A stretch of 50,786 bases of DNA, from the NCBI GenBank assembly GCA_046290225.1, contig JBKAGE010000011.1, forward strand, positions 1-50,786, given 5' to 3'. Shown here piece by piece: positions 6,541-46,624 of this stretch. Each line of letters begins with the position of its first letter. Position 1 is the stretch's first letter. The position numbers and the translations under genes are program-made. This DNA comes from Bradymonadia bacterium. Lineage in GTDB: Bacteria; Myxococcota_A; Bradymonadia; UBA7976; UBA1532. The notes under the pieces are model-generated. The model was not told where the DNA came from, searched no databases, and worked only from the letters and a program-made list of their open reading frames with translations.

Positions 6541-8301
6541 CTAAGGAGCCGGCTGCTTTACCGTGCCCAAATCGTTGATGTTGATCAGAGGTTTTTTGCC
6601 CTGTGTTTCGCCTCTGGACTCTGAATCGGAGCCTTTGAGCTTACCGACCTGGCCCAGGTTGAGGTTGATCTTGGACTGAGATGGGGTGGGCGTAGTCACC
6701 GATGTTGTGTTCTCGCTTATTTCTTCACGTACTGAAGCTCGTCGAGGCGCTTTCGACGCAGATTTCGTCTTCTGACCTTTTTTAGGCTTTGTTCGAGGAC
6801 GAGCTGGTGTGCCTCCCTCTACAAGAGGCTGCATCTCTGTTGCCGAGATCACAGCTTCGGCCGTTTTAGATGGGAGCCGGGCCGCAGGCTCAGGGGCAGA
6901 CTGCTCGGCCATTGGGGAAACTGGTCTGTTTGAATCGGGCACAACATGTTTGGGGCGCGCCCCAGGTTGCTCCGGTTGAGACTCGGTGCTGTGAGAAGCA
7001 AGTGCGGTGGGGCCGCGTGGCTCGGATTTCGATGGGGTACTTTGGCGTGTGAGATCTGCGCCAGTACTAATTCCCTGTTCATTGTAGGGAGTCGCCCAAT
7101 CGACGAGGGTGAGGCTGGCAAGTCCACCGATGGTGAGTACTGCACCTAAAGCCAGTGCCCATGGCTTCAAATATTGTGGGCCAGCATCCTTAAATGCCAC
7201 CGCTGGTGCTGGTGCAGGCTGCTCAGGTGGTAAAATACGTGTTGTGGCCGAGTCCACGGGGGCAGCCACTGGCTGGCTCGGTGGTGAAGGTACAACAGTG
7301 TTGTGTGCTTTGGGTTCATCAGCGAGCTGACTCGAAGCTGTCGTTGCGATCCCGAGGGCTTGTTGAGCAAGCTCACCCGTCCTTCTCACCTCGTTGATGT
7401 CCGAAGCGGGTGTGTTCAGGACGAGCCGGTGATAGATGTCAGTTGCCTCTTTCCGAAGCGCTGCAGCACTCTCAGGCCTCTGAACAGGATCTTTTTCGAG
7501 ACACCAGTGGATGAGCTGTTCAAGGTCCGCAGGGACATCCACAGATTGAAGTCGATGCGCATCACAGAATGCGTTGAACGTAGGTGGAGGCTCATTGAGG
7601 TGTTGGTGCTTCAGATAAAAAGGTACGCCCTGGAATGGCCGTTTTCCGGTGAGGCATTCAAAGGCCACGACACCCAAAGCGTAGAGATCAGCCTGGGGGT
7701 CACATGGCAGACCTTTGATCTGCTCAGGGGACATATATTCCAAGGTACCCGGTGAAGGGGCACCTGTCCGAGTCAGTGGGGTCGATTCTGCCTTCCATTT
7801 AGCGATGCCAAAGTCGAGGACCGTCACATGTTCTTCGCCGTCATGGTTGGTGACAAAGAGGTTGTTCGGCTTCAAGTCACGGTGGATCACCCCATGGCGG
7901 TGAGCTTCGGCGAGGCTGCGTAATACCTGCTGCATGATGTTCAGAGTACGTGGAGCAGAAAGGCGGCCTTCTGCCCGTATCACCTCGTCAAGCGGTTGGC
8001 CCTCAAGGAGTTCACACACCATGAACAAGCCACCACTCGGTAAAGCGCCCTGATCGAGCAAACGGAGCGTATGAGGGCTCTTCAGTTTGGAGATGATCAT
8101 CGCCTCTCGGCGAAACCGCGCCATGAACTGGTCATCATGGGCGTACTGGTCGAGGATGCACTTCAGGGCCACTTGCTGTTTGGTGGATTGTTGTTCGGCG
8201 ATGTAGATCTTGCCCATTCCCCCTGTAGACAGGAGTGACTGGATCTCATATCGCCCCTCCAGCACATGGCCAATGAGAGGATCTCGTGCATTCACAACCA
8301 C
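6541..8301 (-). CDS. Membrane-anchored Hanks-type Ser/Thr kinase, paralogue of 191-1939
   Basis: Long identical stretches with the first kinase (RFRREAMIISKLKSPHTLRLLDQG, HRDLKPNNLF, HVTVLDFGIAKWKAES), a TM segment and the shared tail motif KINLNLG. Start is GTG 8295 or 8301. Confidence 0.92.
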   Translation of the reverse strand: MVVNARDPLIGHVLEGRYEIQSLLSTGGMGKIYIAEQQSTKQQVALKCILDQYAHDDQFMARFRREAMIISKLKSPHTLRLLDQGALPSGGLFMVCELLEGQPLDEVIRAEGRLSAPRTLNIMQQVLRSLAEAHRHGVIHRDLKPNNLFVTNHDGEEHVTVLDFGIAKWKAESTPLTRTGAPSPGTLEYMSPEQIKGLPCDPQADLYALGVVAFECLTGKRPFQGVPFYLKHQHLNEPPPTFNAFCDAHRLQSVDVPADLEQLIHWCLEKDPVQRPESAAALRKEATDIYHRLVLNTPASDINEVRRTGELAQQALGIATTASSQLADEPKAHNTVVPSPPSQPVAAPVDSATTRILPPEQPAPAPAVAFKDAGPQYLKPWALALGAVLTIGGLASLTLVDWATPYNEQGISTGADLTRQSTPSKSEPRGPTALASHSTESQPEQPGARPKHVVPDSNRPVSPMAEQSAPEPAARLPSKTAEAVISATEMQPLVEGGTPARPRTKPKKGQKTKSASKAPRRASVREEISENTTSVTTPTPSQSKINLNLGQVGKLKGSDSESRGETQGKKPLININDLGTVKQPAP

Positions 8302-8552
8302 AACTCCGAGCGTTTACAGCGTGATGAGGAAGAGCCTGCTACACCAGACGTGCCCATCGACGAGATCCCAAGCTCAGAACTGCTCAGTACATCTTCAGAG
8401 CCTGCTCTCGACCTCTCGCCGATGTGCTTCACCTGTCGCATCAGTTTCTTCCTCACAACGCTGGAGTGGAGCCAAATCAGCCTGTTGAGCCTACTGTGTA
8501 TGGCTGTCATTGTCAGCCTGCTTCTATATCTTGAATGTCAAGGCACATCCAG

Positions 8553-11337: not shown

Positions 11338-11390
11338 GAGGTCCTCACACAACGGCGGACCGAGCCAGGGAGGTGAGGCGTGAGGACCTC
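11338..11390. mobile_element. 53-bp MITE with 11-bp terminal inverted repeats and a TAA target duplication
   Basis: TAA-GAGGTCCTCAC...GTGAGGACCTC-TAA, with TAA at 11335-11337 and 11391-11393. Confidence 0.6.
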
Positions 11391-28412: not shown

Positions 28413-29743
28413 AGACCGTTATCATCGGTGGCGGGATTGCGGGGCTGACCGCCGCATGGCACCTCGCGAAGAGCGGCCACCGTGACGTCATCGTGCTTGA
28501 GAGCGAAGAGTATCTGGGTGGAAAAGCAGGAGGCTGGAGAGACGCCGACGGTGACGTGATCGAAGCTGGTCTGCACATCTGCTTTGCGCACTACACGCAT
28601 TTGCTCTCATTGATGCGCGAGCTGGAGGTGGAGGACAAGGTCGCGTGGCAGCCAGCGGCCTTCACCTATGCCTTCGAGGATGGCTCCACATTCGAACTGA
28701 AGATGCCCCCTCTGCCACCACCTCTGCCAGGTGTGGCAGTCATGCTGCGTTACCCTGGGCTGCGTATGCGCGATCGGGTGGCGTCGATTCGAGCTGCTGC
28801 AGAAGCCGCCACCGTTCCATGGCGCTGGCTCGAGACTCAGGACTCGATCTCGTTCAAGGCGTGGCTGCGCAAGAGGCTGGTGCCAGAGGCGGTCGTTACC
28901 CAGCTCTTCGAGCCGATGACCAGGGGGCTGACCTTCATCAACCCCGAAGACGTCTCGGCGACAACAATGTTGAGATACGTCCGTCAGGTGGCGAGGAGCC
29001 GACAGGATTTCGGCATCGGGTTCTTCCAGGGGGGCGTCTTCGAGGCGCTGATCGAGCCCCTCGTGCAGCGCCTCCGAGCGCTCGGGGTTGAGGTGAGGGT
29101 CAACCAGACGGTGCAGCAAATCGAGCTCGGTGAGGAGGCTGTGACCGGGGTCCTCATGAGCGATGGTGAGCGGATCCCCACAGAAGCTGTCATCTGTGCG
29201 ACTCCGGCGCATGTGCTGCCCACACTGATCTCCGCGGCCGATCTCTCAAGGTTTAGATTGCTGTGGTCGCTGCGATTGTCGAGTGTGCCCGTCATCTCGG
29301 CTCAGGTCTGGCTCGATCGGCGTGTGGACACCTCACCGGGACTGTGGTTCTTCCCAGGGGCAATGTTCAACAGCGGCGCCGACGTGACCCGGTACGATCA
29401 TCCCGACGATCAGCACGCGCCATCGGTCTTTCATCTCGTCATTGCCCCTGCGGCCGAGTATATCGAGCGCACCACCGCAGAGCTCGAGTCTCTGGTCACG
29501 GGTGAGCTGCGGGCGCGGGTGAGGTCCACCTGGGGGGCCAAGGTGCGCAAGGTGTCGATCGTGCGTATGTACCGCTCCATTCACTTCTCCGAGCCTGGCT
29601 CGGAGAGGCTCCGCCCCGCCTGCGAGACCAGGGCCCGAGGCCTCTTCCTCGCTGGCGACTATGTCAAGACCGGTCACAGCTGCAACCTCGAGGGGGCGGT
29701 CTCGTCGGCGCTCGCCGCTGCGCGTGCCGTCATGGCCACCTGA
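28409..29743 (+). CDS. Phytoene/zeta-carotene desaturase-like (PDS/ZDS/HpnE family) FAD oxidoreductase
   Basis: IIGGGIAGLTAA, LGGKAGGWRDADGDVIEAGLHICFAHY, FINPEDVSA and LAGDY...LEGAVSS. Confidence 0.85.
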   Translation: MKTVIIGGGIAGLTAAWHLAKSGHRDVIVLESEEYLGGKAGGWRDADGDVIEAGLHICFAHYTHLLSLMRELEVEDKVAWQPAAFTYAFEDGSTFELKMPPLPPPLPGVAVMLRYPGLRMRDRVASIRAAAEAATVPWRWLETQDSISFKAWLRKRLVPEAVVTQLFEPMTRGLTFINPEDVSATTMLRYVRQVARSRQDFGIGFFQGGVFEALIEPLVQRLRALGVEVRVNQTVQQIELGEEAVTGVLMSDGERIPTEAVICATPAHVLPTLISAADLSRFRLLWSLRLSSVPVISAQVWLDRRVDTSPGLWFFPGAMFNSGADVTRYDHPDDQHAPSVFHLVIAPAAEYIERTTAELESLVTGELRARVRSTWGAKVRKVSIVRMYRSIHFSEPGSERLRPACETRARGLFLAGDYVKTGHSCNLEGAVSSALAAARAVMAT

Positions 29744-38438: not shown

Positions 38439-38795
38439 CTAGCCCAGCAGGCGCACGTTGTGCCCAGCGTTCAATTGCAGCAGCTGCTGCACAATTGAAC
38501 GCTCGGGCCACGCTTCGCTGAAGCGGCGCATGTACTTGAGGTTGCGGGGCGATAGTCCCTTCATATCGGGGAAGGCCCGTTGAAGGTCTTTTGACAGCCG
38601 GTCGATGACCTTGGCACCCCAGCCCTCAACGGCTTGTCGTTCGAGGATTGCTCGGCCCAGATCCCAGTACAGGAGGGTCAGCGCCTGGTTGGCTGCCAGG
38701 GTGGCTCGTAGCCGTGCGCCGTGGATACAGGCCTTCAGGTCGGAGAGCAGGGCGCTGTAGTTTGATGGAATGACCGGGTTGTCTGAATCGCCCAT
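38439..38795 (-). pseudogene. Truncated YhcG/DUF1016 (N-terminal domain only; PD-(D/E)XK nuclease domain missing)
   Basis: LYWDLGRAILERQ..EGWGAKVIDRLSKDL...GLSPRNLKYMRRF; stops at 118 aa just after GHNVRLL. Confidence 0.75.
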
Positions 38796-38854
38796 AATGC
38801 CTCCTCGATTGCGTCGAAGGCTAACCAGATGGCGGCTGGGCGGCAACTTGGGCG

Positions 38855-39433
38855 CTATCCGAAATAGCTCGGTGCGTTCCCCGGCTTCCACTTGATGTTG
38901 CACCCGATGCTCGGCAGCTGGTTGTCGAGGGCAGGCTGGCCTGCGAGTACAGCGTCGAGGGCGGCTCGGAGATCACCGCCATGCGCTGTACCTTTCCCGG
39001 GGCGGGTCTCGTCGAACTGACCGCGATAGACCAGCGCATGTGATGCATCGAAGACGAAGAAGTCCGGCGTGCATGCCGCGGTGTACGCCTTCGCCACCTC
39101 CTGGGATTCATCATAGAGGTAGGGGAACACATACCCCGCCGATGCTTTCTTCTCCGCCATCTTCGTCGGACCATCTTGAGGGTGTGACTCGATGCTGTTG
39201 GCGCTGATGGCCACAATGCCCAGGGTGGTCTCGGCATAGTCATGACCGAGTTTTGCCAGAGCAGCCTCGAGGTGCACGACGAAGGGGCAGTGATTGCAGA
39301 TGAACATCACCAGCAGAGGCCGCCCGGCATAATCAGAGAGGCTCACCTGATCACCTGTCGTGGTCTCGGGGAGGCTGAAGTCGGGGGCGGGGGTGCCCGG
39401 GGAGAGCATCATTGTCGAGGGGGTAAGGGCCAT
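38855..39433 (-). CDS. Thioredoxin-fold AhpC/TSA-like protein
   Basis: APDFSL, FICNHCPFV, FPYLYDESQEVAKAY.AACTPDFF and SIGCNIKW. Confidence 0.92.
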   Translation of the reverse strand: MALTPSTMMLSPGTPAPDFSLPETTTGDQVSLSDYAGRPLLVMFICNHCPFVVHLEAALAKLGHDYAETTLGIVAISANSIESHPQDGPTKMAEKKASAGYVFPYLYDESQEVAKAYTAACTPDFFVFDASHALVYRGQFDETRPGKGTAHGGDLRAALDAVLAGQPALDNQLPSIGCNIKWKPGNAPSYFG

Positions 39434-42938: not shown

Positions 42939-43715
42939 CTACAGCGTTTGGGCGGCACCACCGAGGACCTTCCATGTGCGGTTGTGCTGCACATAGATCA
43001 CTGCGGTGAGTCCCTTGGTATCGACGCCATCAGGCAGCCGAGCCTTGATGGTGCCTTTGCTCTGTGCTGAGTCGGTGCCGAGGGCCCGGACGACGTGACC
43101 ATGAGTGAGGGTGCGGCCATGGTTCTCACCGGCGCCGATCTCTGACGTCAGGCCGCCTTCGGTGACGGCAAGCAAGACTTTGCTGCCCTCAGGTACTGTG
43201 TCGAGGCTGTATTGCGCTGTCACTGTTCGGCCCTGTGAGGCAAGGGCGCCGATCTTCACTTTGACCTGGGCGGGGGACTTGAGGGCTTCTGAAAGCGCAG
43301 CCCGTGCCTTGCCCGCACTCGAACCTACAAACTCGCGCTGTCCGTTTACGACCATCTGCGGGGTGTAGATGCGCCGACTGCCCCGGCTGGCTGCAAACTG
43401 ATTTTGTCTCTGAGTCCACGCTTTGTGGCTGAACGGGTCGTCCCAGCCGATGTAATTCCAATAGTCTACGTGGAAGGCCAGGGGGAATACTGGCAGCCCT
43501 TTGGCCCTGGCCTCGCGGCCCATGGCGTCGAGTACAGCGTCGGCGGGTGGGCAGCTGCTGCAGCCTTCGGATGTATAGAGCTCGACAACTGCAACGGCCT
43601 CACTGTTGGCCTTGGCGGGCAACAGGTTGCTGGCGTCCGCGTGGCTTTCGGTGATGGCTGCAGAGAGAATCCCGAGACTGAGGGCGGCGGCAGAGACGAG
43701 AAGGAAGGTGCGCAT
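42939..43715 (-). CDS. DUF1223 family exported thioredoxin-like protein
   Basis: VELYTSEGCSSCPPAD, FHVDYWNYIGWDDPF, YTPQMVVNG and GENHGRTL. Confidence 0.92.
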   Translation of the reverse strand: MRTFLLVSAAALSLGILSAAITESHADASNLLPAKANSEAVAVVELYTSEGCSSCPPADAVLDAMGREARAKGLPVFPLAFHVDYWNYIGWDDPFSHKAWTQRQNQFAASRGSRRIYTPQMVVNGQREFVGSSAGKARAALSEALKSPAQVKVKIGALASQGRTVTAQYSLDTVPEGSKVLLAVTEGGLTSEIGAGENHGRTLTHGHVVRALGTDSAQSKGTIKARLPDGVDTKGLTAVIYVQHNRTWKVLGGAAQTL

Positions 43716-43775: not shown

Positions 43776-43795
43776 GAGGGTTTTTAAGAGAGTTT

Positions 43796-43813
43796 CGGGC
43801 ACGGGCACGGGCA
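43796..43813. repeat. (CGGGCA)x3 tandem hexamer
   Basis: Read directly; flanked on both sides by GAGTTT. Confidence 0.7.
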
Positions 43814-43928
43814 CGAGTTTTACGCGACCTGACAGTGCAGTCTGAGGCTGCACATCTTGGAGGTGGGTGCGCTAGGCGTTGCTCGATTAGCCAGGTGCCC
43901 TATGCGATTGGGAGGTTGTTGTGTACGT

Positions 43929-44098
43929 GCTCCGCGGAGCCCCGGAGGTGGCGACAGTCGTCGTGAGGGTGGGGAGTGCGTGTGCAGATGCGGGCTTTCA
44001 CCCGCAGGCGCAGCAGCGCTGCGTCGAGGACGGAAAGGTCGTAGCTGTGCGCGTAATCGCCGCCCTCACGATGACTGGCGTCGCCGGAGGGGCGGAGC
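43929..44098 (+). ncRNA. Candidate structured RNA or palindromic element (long rod hairpin)
   Basis: Six nested stems with about 9 G-U pairs and no A-C pairs on the + strand; see findings. Confidence 0.55.
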
Positions 44099-44099
44099 C

Positions 44100-46547
44100 T
44101 CAGTAACCCGAGCGGCTCAGGGTATCGAGCCAGTAGAAGTGCCAGTCCAGGACCGGCTCGTCGGGCACACCGAAGAGCCAGCGGGTGAAGCGACCCATGC
44201 TGCTGGGCTTGAGCTGAGTCCAGCGGAAGTGATCGTTGGCCCGGGTGCCCATCCAGATGCCGAAGATGCTGCTCTCCGTCGCCACGACGCCGTCGTTCTC
44301 GCCCTCATTGTCGCGCACGATGCGGAAGGGGAGGAGCAGCTCCGTGGCCAGGGTGTCACCGCAGGAGCCGGTGACGCAGCTCTGGGCGCTCCAGGAGAAG
44401 AAGGTGGGACCGCGGCGGGTCGGTGCCGGCAGCTTGGGCTGACCGTTGGCATCGGTGGAGGGCAGATCAGCCTCGTCGAGGCCCAGCTCGGCGCGGCAGG
44501 TGGAATCCTGCGCACACTGCCAGGTGTACTTGCGCTCGGGGACCGGCTCCAGGTGGGCGCTCATCACATCTTCACAGTACTCCACCGAGAGGGCGTAGAA
44601 GGTGTCGATGAGAGCCTGGGTGTCCTCAGGGCTCAGACCCATCACCAGCTTCACCACCTTGCGGAAGGCCCAGTTGAGGAAGTCGCGGTTGAGCTGGCGC
44701 ATGCCCCAACTCGCGAAGCTCGAGCCACAGTGAGGCGTCGACAGCGTCGTCACCGAGACCACCCGATCACGCCATTGGATCACCACACCGTCATCGTCGG
44801 TGAGGCAGCAGGCTTCGGGCTCGCCGTCAGCATCGGTGCAGCAGTACTGCGAGTTCGGAGCAGCGTCGTCGGGGGCACACATCTGCACCTGGTGGCACTG
44901 ATCGTTGTTGTACTTGGGGTGGTTGAGCAGGAAGCGGTTGTCGAGGCCACCCATGGAGTGGGCGATGACATTCAGACGCATGTACGCCTCGTTCGCCGCA
45001 GGGGGGATGTTGTCCGCCTTCAGCCGGGCGAGGAAGTCGGTCATGTTGCGGCGCAGGTGCTCTGCGCGGACCGGCACGGGCTGGTAACCGGGGACCGAGT
45101 CGGCGTAGACCCAACCGTGGGGCTCCTTCCAACCATCCTGATCTTCGTCAGCGGCGTCGTCGAAGAACACCGTGCTCTGCCAGCGATCGTCGTTGGCGAG
45201 GCTGTCGATGAAGTAGGTCCAGCTGACGCGGCTCGTGTTGAAGCCGTGGGCCAAGTAGATCGGGTACTTGGTGATCTGGCTCTTGGGGCTGCAGGTGCCC
45301 TCGCAGGTCACCTTCAGGTCGTAGAGAGAAGACTCATCCACGTCGATGTGCAGCGGGCGGTAGTACGTGATCAGCGCGTCGCCGTTCTCGACGGGCACGA
45401 TGGCGTCGTCCTTGATGTAGGCCGGCACCATGCAGTTGTGCAGGTCGGGATCTGCATCGCAGCTGCCGTCCTTGGTGAGGGTGATCTCCTCGCCGTTGTG
45501 GACCTCGGGCACCAAGGCCACCAGCGCAGCATCCATAAGATCGTCGCCGCTCAGCGAGAGCAGCTTGCCGTCGCCCGATACCGACTCGAGGATGTGGAAG
45601 GTCTCCTGAGCACCGGGGTTGTCGGGATCGATGAGGGTGGTGATGCCCTCGTAGGGCTCGTTGAAGAGGCCCAGGCGGAGATCGCCGCCGTCCTTGGAGA
45701 TGAACCAGGTCGAGCGGGACCAGGCCTCGGGGCTGTACCAGTCGAGCTCGCCGTCGGGGCCCTCGGCCCAGATGATGCCGTCGTTGGCCTCCGGATCGTA
45801 GTCAGGGGCGTTGACGGGGTTGGCGATGGGACGCTTCTCGACGATCTCGTCCTGGGCGTTGGCAAAGCCCAGAGACAAGATCTCAGCGCCGTCAGGGCCC
45901 TGCTCGGAGACGATGTAGACCCGCTCCTCTTCGTGGAAGCCCTCTTCGTCCTCATAGCGGACGATCGCCTGGTGGCCGGGGTAGCGGGGGAGGAAGCCCT
46001 GACCCGTCTCAGGGCCCACCACCAGGGCGTACTGGCCATACTCGCGGGTGTTGAGGTTCACCTTCACCGTGCCGTTCTCGGCCACGGCCGGCGCCGGCTT
46101 GCCCCAGCTGCCATCGGCGAGGCGAGGACCGAAGACCCAAACCGCCGCCGTGTTTGCCATCCGGGCGTCTTCAGTCTTCAGCTCCACCGTGTAAGTGGCC
46201 TGGCCGTAAGAGGCGAAGGGGAACACGTGCCAGCGGCGGCTGCGATGGCTGAAGGTCTGAGCGCGGCGCTCTGCAACGGGGTTGCCCGAGAGGTCGAGCC
46301 GATCGCGCAGCACGAAGCGGGGGTGGTTGTGCAGCGCCTCCACCTCTTCAGGGCGGAGGTTGTCCGCGAGGTCGGTCGAGTCGGCCTTTGCCGAGGGCGT
46401 TGGCGGTGCGCTCGCGCCCGGTCCAGGCGTCGGCGCGCCCTGATCGTCGGCCTCCTGGCCACAACCAGCCACAGTGGCCAGTAGAGTGGCCATCAACACC
46501 AGCGGGCGTCCCGCGGTGCGCATCAAACTCGAACTCTTCGTGGACAT
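44100..46547 (-). CDS. Large lipoprotein with a C-terminal lipase/esterase (alpha/beta hydrolase) domain
   Basis: Lipobox VAGC; oxyanion LAHGF; nucleophile AHSMGG; LSTPHCGS; NDGVV; DHF. Start is ATG 46547 after GGAGG. Confidence 0.85.
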   Translation of the reverse strand: MSTKSSSLMRTAGRPLVLMATLLATVAGCGQEADDQGAPTPGPGASAPPTPSAKADSTDLADNLRPEEVEALHNHPRFVLRDRLDLSGNPVAERRAQTFSHRSRRWHVFPFASYGQATYTVELKTEDARMANTAAVWVFGPRLADGSWGKPAPAVAENGTVKVNLNTREYGQYALVVGPETGQGFLPRYPGHQAIVRYEDEEGFHEEERVYIVSEQGPDGAEILSLGFANAQDEIVEKRPIANPVNAPDYDPEANDGIIWAEGPDGELDWYSPEAWSRSTWFISKDGGDLRLGLFNEPYEGITTLIDPDNPGAQETFHILESVSGDGKLLSLSGDDLMDAALVALVPEVHNGEEITLTKDGSCDADPDLHNCMVPAYIKDDAIVPVENGDALITYYRPLHIDVDESSLYDLKVTCEGTCSPKSQITKYPIYLAHGFNTSRVSWTYFIDSLANDDRWQSTVFFDDAADEDQDGWKEPHGWVYADSVPGYQPVPVRAEHLRRNMTDFLARLKADNIPPAANEAYMRLNVIAHSMGGLDNRFLLNHPKYNNDQCHQVQMCAPDDAAPNSQYCCTDADGEPEACCLTDDDGVVIQWRDRVVSVTTLSTPHCGSSFASWGMRQLNRDFLNWAFRKVVKLVMGLSPEDTQALIDTFYALSVEYCEDVMSAHLEPVPERKYTWQCAQDSTCRAELGLDEADLPSTDANGQPKLPAPTRRGPTFFSWSAQSCVTGSCGDTLATELLLPFRIVRDNEGENDGVVATESSIFGIWMGTRANDHFRWTQLKPSSMGRFTRWLFGVPDEPVLDWHFYWLDTLSRSGY

Positions 46548-46624
46548 TGGGTTTTCCTCCCCCTGAGCGCCATCTTCCACCTGGCGACCAGAGCAGCCAT
46601 ATCGTTGCCTCGACATATGGTCTC

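Follow-up and report, generated by a model that had tools for sequence, protein, structure and literature searches.

What is an unbranched 170-nt hairpin that folds well on one strand only and lies antisense to the genes on either side of it? The question arises in a 50,786-nt stretch of a draft genome of a Bradymonadia bacterium (GenBank assembly GCA_046290225.1, contig JBKAGE010000011.1, positions 1 to 50,786), the whole of which is called the window here. A preliminary description made from the letters alone had proposed a candidate novel ncRNA or ssDNA-folding element with a possible switch. The hairpin was found to be one copy of a repeat, and the ssDNA-folding half of that proposal fits it best. 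The repeat family of the window rod in this genome is named family A. The features of the locus are listed below.

42939..43715, - strand: DUF1223 gene on the 5' side of the hairpin, its start 213 nt away; outside the element
43787..43862, no strand assigned: between the DUF1223 gene and the hairpin, remnants of two further repeat families (GGCACG hexamers at ~43798-43815; ~37-nt unit at 43826-43862)
43919..43928, + strand: conserved 5' shoulder
43929..44098, + strand: rod hairpin of family A, shown on its folding strand; the part paired throughout the family is 43934-44098
43936..43946, + strand: 5' halves of two basal GNA/GNA internal loops (43936-38, 43944-46), flanking a 5-bp covarying stem
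44002..44030, + strand: apical core, comprising a GCA/GA internal loop, an 8-bp stem, and the triloop 44015-44017
44086..44098, + strand: matching 3' halves of both basal loops (44086-88, 44094-96), plus the fixed 3' end
44100..46616, - strand: abutted gene, 838 aa from the first ATG; our own gene model starts at 46493

The segment 43929-44098 (170 nt) forms an unbranched rod of -120.7 kcal/mol on the + strand (z -10.81), and none of 200 dinucleotide shuffles was as stable. The reverse strand reached -80.9 kcal/mol (z -4.56), in agreement with the one-strand folding described before. All six stems named earlier pair at their coordinates, with one G.G mismatch in the fifth. The minimum-energy RNA fold contains 68 pairs (43 G-C, 14 A-U, and 11 G-U); G-U pairs are present as proposed, their number being 11 rather than about nine. 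Both flanking genes (42939-43715 and 44100-46616) are encoded on the - strand, and the hairpin is indeed antisense to each. The alternative hairpin at 43989-44006, from which the switch had been suggested, exists as sequence and is neither favoured nor conserved. Its test pair has an ensemble probability of 0.002 (RNA) or 0.009 (DNA), all six of its pairs are possible in just 25 of 76 copies, and the switch was abandoned.

The rod scored 151.8 bits with the family-A covariance model, whose training set includes this copy. Its outermost 7-bp stem is peculiar to the window copy, family A pairing 2 bp there, beneath a GGA/GGA loop. Columns G8, A10, and G16 of the basal 5' loops are invariant in the alignment, and A18 is nearly so. 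Most family-A copies carry a further A/C-rich 5' leader of ~60 nt, which the window copy lacks, and a short A-rich tail lies beyond the fixed 3' end in other copies. The apical core is common to family A, a second family of this genome (family B), MITEs of other genera, and Geobacter Gmet_R1001-R1024. A 61-aa ORF on the + strand overlaps the hairpin; a coding role was rejected since copy lengths of 164-186 nt break a shared frame.

The stop codon of the abutted gene (44100-44102) is 1 nt off the hairpin. The gene has a codon bias at the 91st percentile, gave no Pfam match, and contains a GFN/AHSMGG pattern that we take to be lipase-like; with this query it was not found in 27 genomes of the host's family. 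In the gap on the other side, the GGCACG hexamers and the ~37-nt unit had 241 and 36 BLAST matches in the genome, respectively, and the latter was also found in ~100-nt tandem arrays (contigs C8, C40, and C51).

Copies, covariation, and segment exchange in family A

Family-A loci were collected by BLAST (45 matches in the own genome), followed by two rounds of profile search on the same genome. The profile search gave 122 non-overlapping loci, 82 of which span more than 140 of the 171 model positions; many of the remaining loci are half copies at contig ends, including halves split by an insertion sequence (IS). Family A is a dispersed repeat of about 100 copies. The strand matching the window + strand was the more stable one in all 79 full copies folded, by RNA energies (mean -120.9 vs -85.8 for the other strand) as well as DNA energies (-63.4 vs -45.8).

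For the alignment, 41 of the 79 copies were picked for diversity, and copies with apical inserts were left out. Their identity ranges from 49 to 96% (median 66%), with almost no gaps except at the tip. Both sides change in 47 of the 63 consensus pairs, and 96.4% of cells pair. The proportion is 74.8% after column shuffling, with none of 500 shuffles reaching the observed value, and 31-50% with partners slid; since the copies are related, these figures are not probabilities. G.T and A.C cells occur in a ratio of 369:9, and the remaining mismatches are mostly purine-purine. The geometry is fixed, with two basal GNA/GNA loops, a GCA/GA loop close to the tip, and T.G wobbles at constant positions, such as column 30 (39 of 41 copies). 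Pairing, length, and purine-rich loops are conserved in family A, and stem sequence is free. The tip loops of the 79 copies are mostly triloops (AGC in 24, GGA in 14), with no GNRA or UUCG tetraloop among those listed; side loops are T-rich, and longer tips bear a T-rich side hairpin.

In DNA, GNA triloops, T4 loops, and sheared G.A zippers form stable structures. As DNA-stable motifs, the family-A loops tilt the interpretation towards ssDNA, a paper search on the DNA stability of these loops having returned nothing usable; the G.T wobbles fit RNA equally well. Template switching in quasi-palindromes can produce compensatory changes without selection, but it would not keep G.T wobbles. The hairpin is supported as a structure-selected element that folds on one strand and has homologues with strong covariation.

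The rod was cut into seven segments, and segment similarity was compared among copies. Each 5'-arm segment tracks its own 3'-arm pairing partner (rho 0.73-0.91, vs 0.00-0.70 with any other segment), and the two apical segments vary almost independently of all others (0.03-0.29). On contig C82, two copies behind tandem paralogues have a common rare basal allele and different interiors. Segments are shuffled between copies along with their pairing partners, as would be expected from exchange between folded hairpins or from selection on symmetric recombinants.

Two other mobile elements insert at fixed points of family A. One is an unassembled IS of about 10 copies, which inserts almost only into the tip triloop: all 20 ends follow the last six bases of the apical stem plus three (19 within a recognisable arm), and the 3-nt tip loop is kept on both sides of the inserted IS. 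The other is a group II intron (RF00029, 49.1 bits, cut-off 40), likewise unassembled and multicopy, with an atypical 5' end, which homes to the basal loop on the mRNA-sense strand; the same 5-nt basal-loop word precedes it at 6 of 6 junctions, and the C21 copy keeps just an intron 3' remnant. REPs have also been described as IS targets (PMC3733652). The contigs concerned are as follows.

IS-bearing contig ends: C6, C15, C18, C20, C24, C35, C38, C42-44, C46, C48, C53, C54, C63, C64, C75, C79, C81
Group II intron 5' ends: C9, C12, C37, C51, C56, C65
Group II intron 3' ends: C5, C21, C23, C62, C65, C66, C72

Placement at gene ends

According to gene models made with our own dicodon caller, a gene points at the intact 3' end of the element in 83 of 94 copies, 65 of them within 15 nt. 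Because these models are home-made, the boundary test was repeated without them, using reverse-strand stops with 80 or more open codons after them. An opposite-strand stop lies -1 to +8 nt from the 3' end of the folding strand in 61 of 93 copies, compared with 359 of 5000 random intergenic positions, and the test at the element's other end gave 2 of 80. Several of the other 32 copies adjoin tRNA ends or terminator tails. In relation to the neighbouring gene, the folding strand serves as the template, and a stop, a tRNA end, or a terminator tail lies directly at the 3' end of that strand.

Codon bias was used as a proxy for expression. The abutted genes show ribosomal-protein-like codon usage: the top decile holds 32 of 71 of them, and 61 of 71 exceed the median (p 3e-15). 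Among the controls, it holds 157 of 1372 other genes that are last in their unit and, on the element's other side, 2 of 30 and 2 of 31 genes. A cruder codon reference set led to the same outcome. The neighbours include ribosomal-protein, ATP synthase, ssb, and tRNA genes (named by our own reading of the sequences). A host function and targeting would account for this expression bias equally well.

Twelve copies face a gene start, and in five of these the terminal GGAG is located 2-8 nt before the ATG, usually with the A-rich tail as a spacer. In five copies, the neighbouring reading frame enters the element and ends at a stop inside it. Owing to these two kinds of copies, the junctions gather at functional boundaries from both sides, a pattern that fits selection-limited loss of adjacent DNA better than a fixed target word. 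Target-site duplication was not detected in family A, the shared flank words being no longer than at mismatched loci (72 copies). The 5' leader is rich in A and C (0.31 and 0.35, vs 0.20 and 0.29 in controls), and partial duplicate arms are frequent in it. Comparison of the folding strand with the local GC skew gave 40 of 67, which shows no clear link to replication. A 27-nt stretch of the window (29605-29631) is 85% complementary to 44075-44101 and is possibly a lone 3'-end fragment of family A.

Relatives of the tip core

Family B is a conventional MITE of the same genome, with 22 full copies (C42:41338-41502 and 21 others) that possess TIRs and TNA flanks; the 3-nt flanks are identical in 13 of 22. 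It shares the tip core with family A. Its long forms of ~280 nt (e.g., C7:49443-49724) add a second, branched arm. A minimal family-B MITE of 53 nt, with TIRs only and identical TAA flanks, is located in the window at 11338-11390, and similar minimal forms were found on C81, C48, C1, and C42. No autonomous partner was detected between family-B TIRs in the genome.

A BLAST search among 30 relatives gave short matches in 7 genomes, which were not rods when folded. The family-A covariance model had weak multicopy matches in 9 of the 27 family genomes. Folding was applied to 23 such loci, which formed rods with the family-A tip loop, most of them enclosed by TIRs that are related neither to A nor among themselves. 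A 17-base core pattern occurred in 78 of 401 phylum genomes, this genome counted. Its reversed control never had more than one match per genome (24 genomes, own count), so single core matches are often due to chance. Eight other phylum genomes contain 5-27 core copies with self-complementary interiors. In 17 such loci that were folded, the motif strand was always the more stable one; most of these loci form rods of 150-200 nt bounded by terminal repeats, and inspection showed no transposase next to any of them. Many MITE families with unrelated TIRs and the same strand-asymmetric rod core were observed in G008, G014, G033, G013, G331, G222, G049, G309, and G005 (L085-L112, L139-L166), and some of the core-bearing MITEs in those genomes share the outer GGA/GA loop of family B.

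An architecture pattern that recovers 55 family-A copies in this genome gave 10 matches in GTDB genomes, 7 in metagenomes, and 1 in viral contigs, none of which was scored by the covariance model but a low-complexity satellite; very close genomes possibly lie outside the scan. This sole outside covariance-model match (L124:400-1200), a metagenome contig of a palindromic 10-nt satellite, was rejected as an artefact. A plasmid and phage BLAST with family A gave no match. The base architecture of family A has so far been seen in one genome only.

The tip core itself is already known, since it is in print as a Geobacter palindrome. Gmet_R1001-R1024 of Geobacter metallireducens, 24 intergenic 'predicted short RNA elements' (PMC2700814, Fig. 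S1), are multicopy like family A, and their central palindrome GRCGTAGCGCTGCTACGCC is the reverse complement of a common family-A tip allele; palindromes of this type are also reported there from three other species. This reverse complement forms the tip of several copies (e.g., the alleles of rows L079-L080), and the window copy differs from it at two paired positions. Five of the 24 rows (R1003, R1010, R1013, R1015, and R1021) also have the loop-flanking bases of family A, by eye. Unlike family A, the Geobacter elements are ~113 nt as aligned and lack the double GNA/GNA base, and their arms look unrelated when compared by eye. The passages of PMC2700814 on Gmet_R give no covariation, strand asymmetry, stop-codon polarity, expression bias, mechanism, or function.

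Origin and affinities of the repeat

Family A is a REP/MITE-like, structure-coded palindromic repeat that probably folds as ssDNA. The fuller reading, to which we assign a probability of about 45%, is that of a non-autonomous ssDNA repeat recognised by shape, which lands in strongly transcribed regions, is trimmed at the gene boundary, and is kept with its weaker fold in the mRNA. The folding strand would form a single-stranded DNA hairpin, either extruded by transcription-driven supercoiling or exposed in replication, and a putative protein would recognise it by shape. New copies would be laid down preferentially in strongly transcribed regions, and the DNA beside the fixed 3' end would be lost until selection halted the loss at the nearest functional boundary. 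The tolerated orientation would be that with the weaker fold in the mRNA, and copies would then swap segments in register via recombination or gene conversion. Hairpins at most 15 nt from a stop can trigger tmRNA action and mRNA decay (PMC5009743), and this risk may be one reason to keep the strong fold off the mRNA strand.

Searches for a mover in the genome gave no match for Y1 transposase, RAYT, or IS110 (PF01797, PF02371, and NF047646), and clustering of 152 neighbour genes revealed no recurrent mobile gene; a search for IS91 (PF04986) was run without a positive control. Tyrosine recombinases are present in the genome, none of them linked to family A. Multicopy elements are collapsed or unassembled in the draft assembly, and the absence of a mover is therefore weak evidence.

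How REP- and MITE-like repeats spread, and whether they render any service to the host, is a long-standing question, for which family A offers sharp rules: one folding strand, one fixed end, in-register segment exchange, a 10-nt landing window at stop codons, and a four-fold excess of top-decile expressed genes (by the codon-bias proxy). It also connects the Geobacter 'short RNA' elements with a hairpin core that occurs across the phylum and is carried from one kind of TIR to another, unrelated kind, and such carriage points to a shared, putative binding protein. A bolder version, which we consider doubtful, holds that the conserved unit is the rod and not IS ends. A shape-coded single-strand module (sheared G.A loops, polar T.G wobbles, fixed spacing) would reside inside unrelated-TIR MITEs from Geobacter to this phylum; here it would have shed the TIRs and acquired an undescribed, transcription-coupled mode of spread, homing to the 3' boundaries of highly expressed genes and recombining as a folded hairpin. 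If true, the rod would stand for a new class of short element, mobile or chromosome-organising, with a partner protein.

A domesticated host site, in which the rod is kept at strongly transcribed gene ends for a job, whatever its origin, is unlikely as the primary account and compatible with the ssDNA-repeat reading as a later stage. The job could be that of a DNA roadblock, of a topoisomerase or nucleoid-protein site relieving supercoils (BIME-like), or of a signal for stabilisation or processing at the mRNA 3' end. Where two copies neighbour each other at up to 4 kb, they are arranged back to back in 14 of 16 cases (co-oriented in 2), with ordinary genes or tRNAs between the back-to-back ones. 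Canonical terminators were rare in our own scan (26 of 501 control genes). Both observations favour such a site, as do the restriction of the top-decile bias to the abutted side, the ribosomal-protein, ATP synthase, ssb, and tRNA neighbours, and the fact that old copies at 49% identity still pair; a test of terminator retention (1 of 46 vs 26 of 501) did not discriminate. However, the mRNA does not carry the best fold, and this speaks against a role at the mRNA level. In addition, only one genome was found to have the architecture, and the IS interrupts about 10 copies.

Slightly less probable is SINE-like retroposition, in which a reverse transcriptase (RT) borrowed from a group II intron or a retron would copy + strand RNA, with priming or template switching where abundant RNAs have their 3' ends. 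The outcome would be a fixed 3' end and a ragged 5' end, together with tandem duplications of the ends and shuffled segments. The fixed 3' end with its A-rich tail, the variable 5' flank, and the duplicated end units agree with this, as do the G.U asymmetry and the fact that junctions fall where abundant RNAs have stop codons, tRNA ends, or terminator tails. The genome has a multicopy group II intron and two retron-like RT genes, and msDNA-like repeats have been proposed in Nannocystis, to judge by a title cited in PMC6868368. The two RT genes, retron-like by our own reading, are convergent (C79:177640-181433; L034, L035); one has a long upstream hairpin region with TGTGT repeats, and the other has large co-oriented genes upstream. 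A retron msr-msd origin was rejected because the DNA around both RT genes is unlike the repeat (best E 0.68, filters off). The absence of target duplication and of a promoter match, the DNA-type loops, and the start-codon junctions, which the model leaves unexplained, also count against retroposition.

Family A may alternatively have eroded from a classical TIR-bounded, DDE-moved MITE like family B, its ends lost and its later spread due to gene conversion only, which seems improbable. In favour, family B has TIRs around the core, 13 of its 22 copies have identical flanks of 3 nt, and relatives hold the core inside varied TIRs. However, no TIR remnant or duplication is present in family A, which has its own conserved base and leader. 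Family B abuts stops at both ends (9 and 8 of 22), through its TNA target, and family A at one end only; family-B neighbours show no enrichment in the top codon-bias decile, which holds 2 of 25 of them by the crude reference set.

Independent antisense ncRNAs, or a riboswitch-like 5' leader in which the rod would hide the basal GGAG ribosome-binding site, are very improbable. The covariation, G.U pairs, and fixed geometry would suit an RNA, five copies have the GGAG and A-rich spacer before an ATG, and the Geobacter relatives are annotated as predicted short RNAs (PMC2700814). However, 83 of 94 copies are antisense behind a gene and not upstream of one, the switch hairpin is disfavoured, and no locus is conserved in other genera. 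At family-A copies, no sigma-70 promoter was matched and none is conserved. In Rfam 15, the window had no match at the gathering score, and below it only generic plant miRNA hairpins appeared (34 and 33 bits vs 268 and 168). The single novel ncRNA gene of the preliminary description thus gave way to a dispersed repeat of ~100 copies, without a sigma-70 promoter match and with a tip already published from Geobacter.

An attC-like recombination site of a dispersed integron, which the preliminary description had rightly set aside, is largely refuted: the polarity matches, with attC structure conserved over sequence and the purine-rich non-coding strand folding better just after a stop (PMC5371416), but the rod exceeds the 57-141 bp range given there, the alignment ends lack AAC/GTT cores, the best IntI match (TIGR02249) reached 85.6 bits vs a cut-off of 265, tandem cassette arrays are absent (2 of 16 co-oriented), and the neighbours include housekeeping genes.

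As a multicopy extragenic palindrome near gene 3' ends, family A resembles REPs. The REP/REPIN/BIME repeats covered in PMC3733652 are also dispersed palindromes less than 20 bp from gene 3' ends, where they sometimes provide the stop codon; they have G.T pairs and alternative complementary stems and are targeted by IS elements, as is seen in the rod repeats. REPs (GTAG-/CGTC-tagged) are described there as 20-40 nt long with a terminal tag and often a RAYT, whereas family A is a single 170-nt rod of fixed polarity without a terminal tag, and no RAYT was found; GTAG/CGTC tetramers occur inside its tip stem only. The ERIC, YPAl, Correia, Chunjie, and RPE MITEs (PMC10969869, PMC3184786) are like family A in their size, non-coding nature, long stable hairpin, and location near gene 3' ends. 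Family A differs from bacterial MITEs in having no TIR and no target duplication and in being GC-rich, and its termini are loops plus a 2-bp stem, not TIRs. It is REP/MITE-like, and attC-like in polarity, yet lacks the diagnostic features of each class. No description of its architecture was found in the literature covered, which left subscription papers mostly outside; the nine repeat alignments in the supplement of PMC2996986 and other figures of PMC2700814 may hold closer relatives. The gene-end pattern is sharper in family A than in the related bacterial repeats compared.

Two further observations concern the window at large. A short ORF with a DUF1016 N-terminal domain, apparently truncated, is located at 38439-38903. 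The segments 1272-1952 and 7628-8308 form a direct repeat with a spacing of 6356 nt and 76-80% identity, and are probably tandem paralogous genes.
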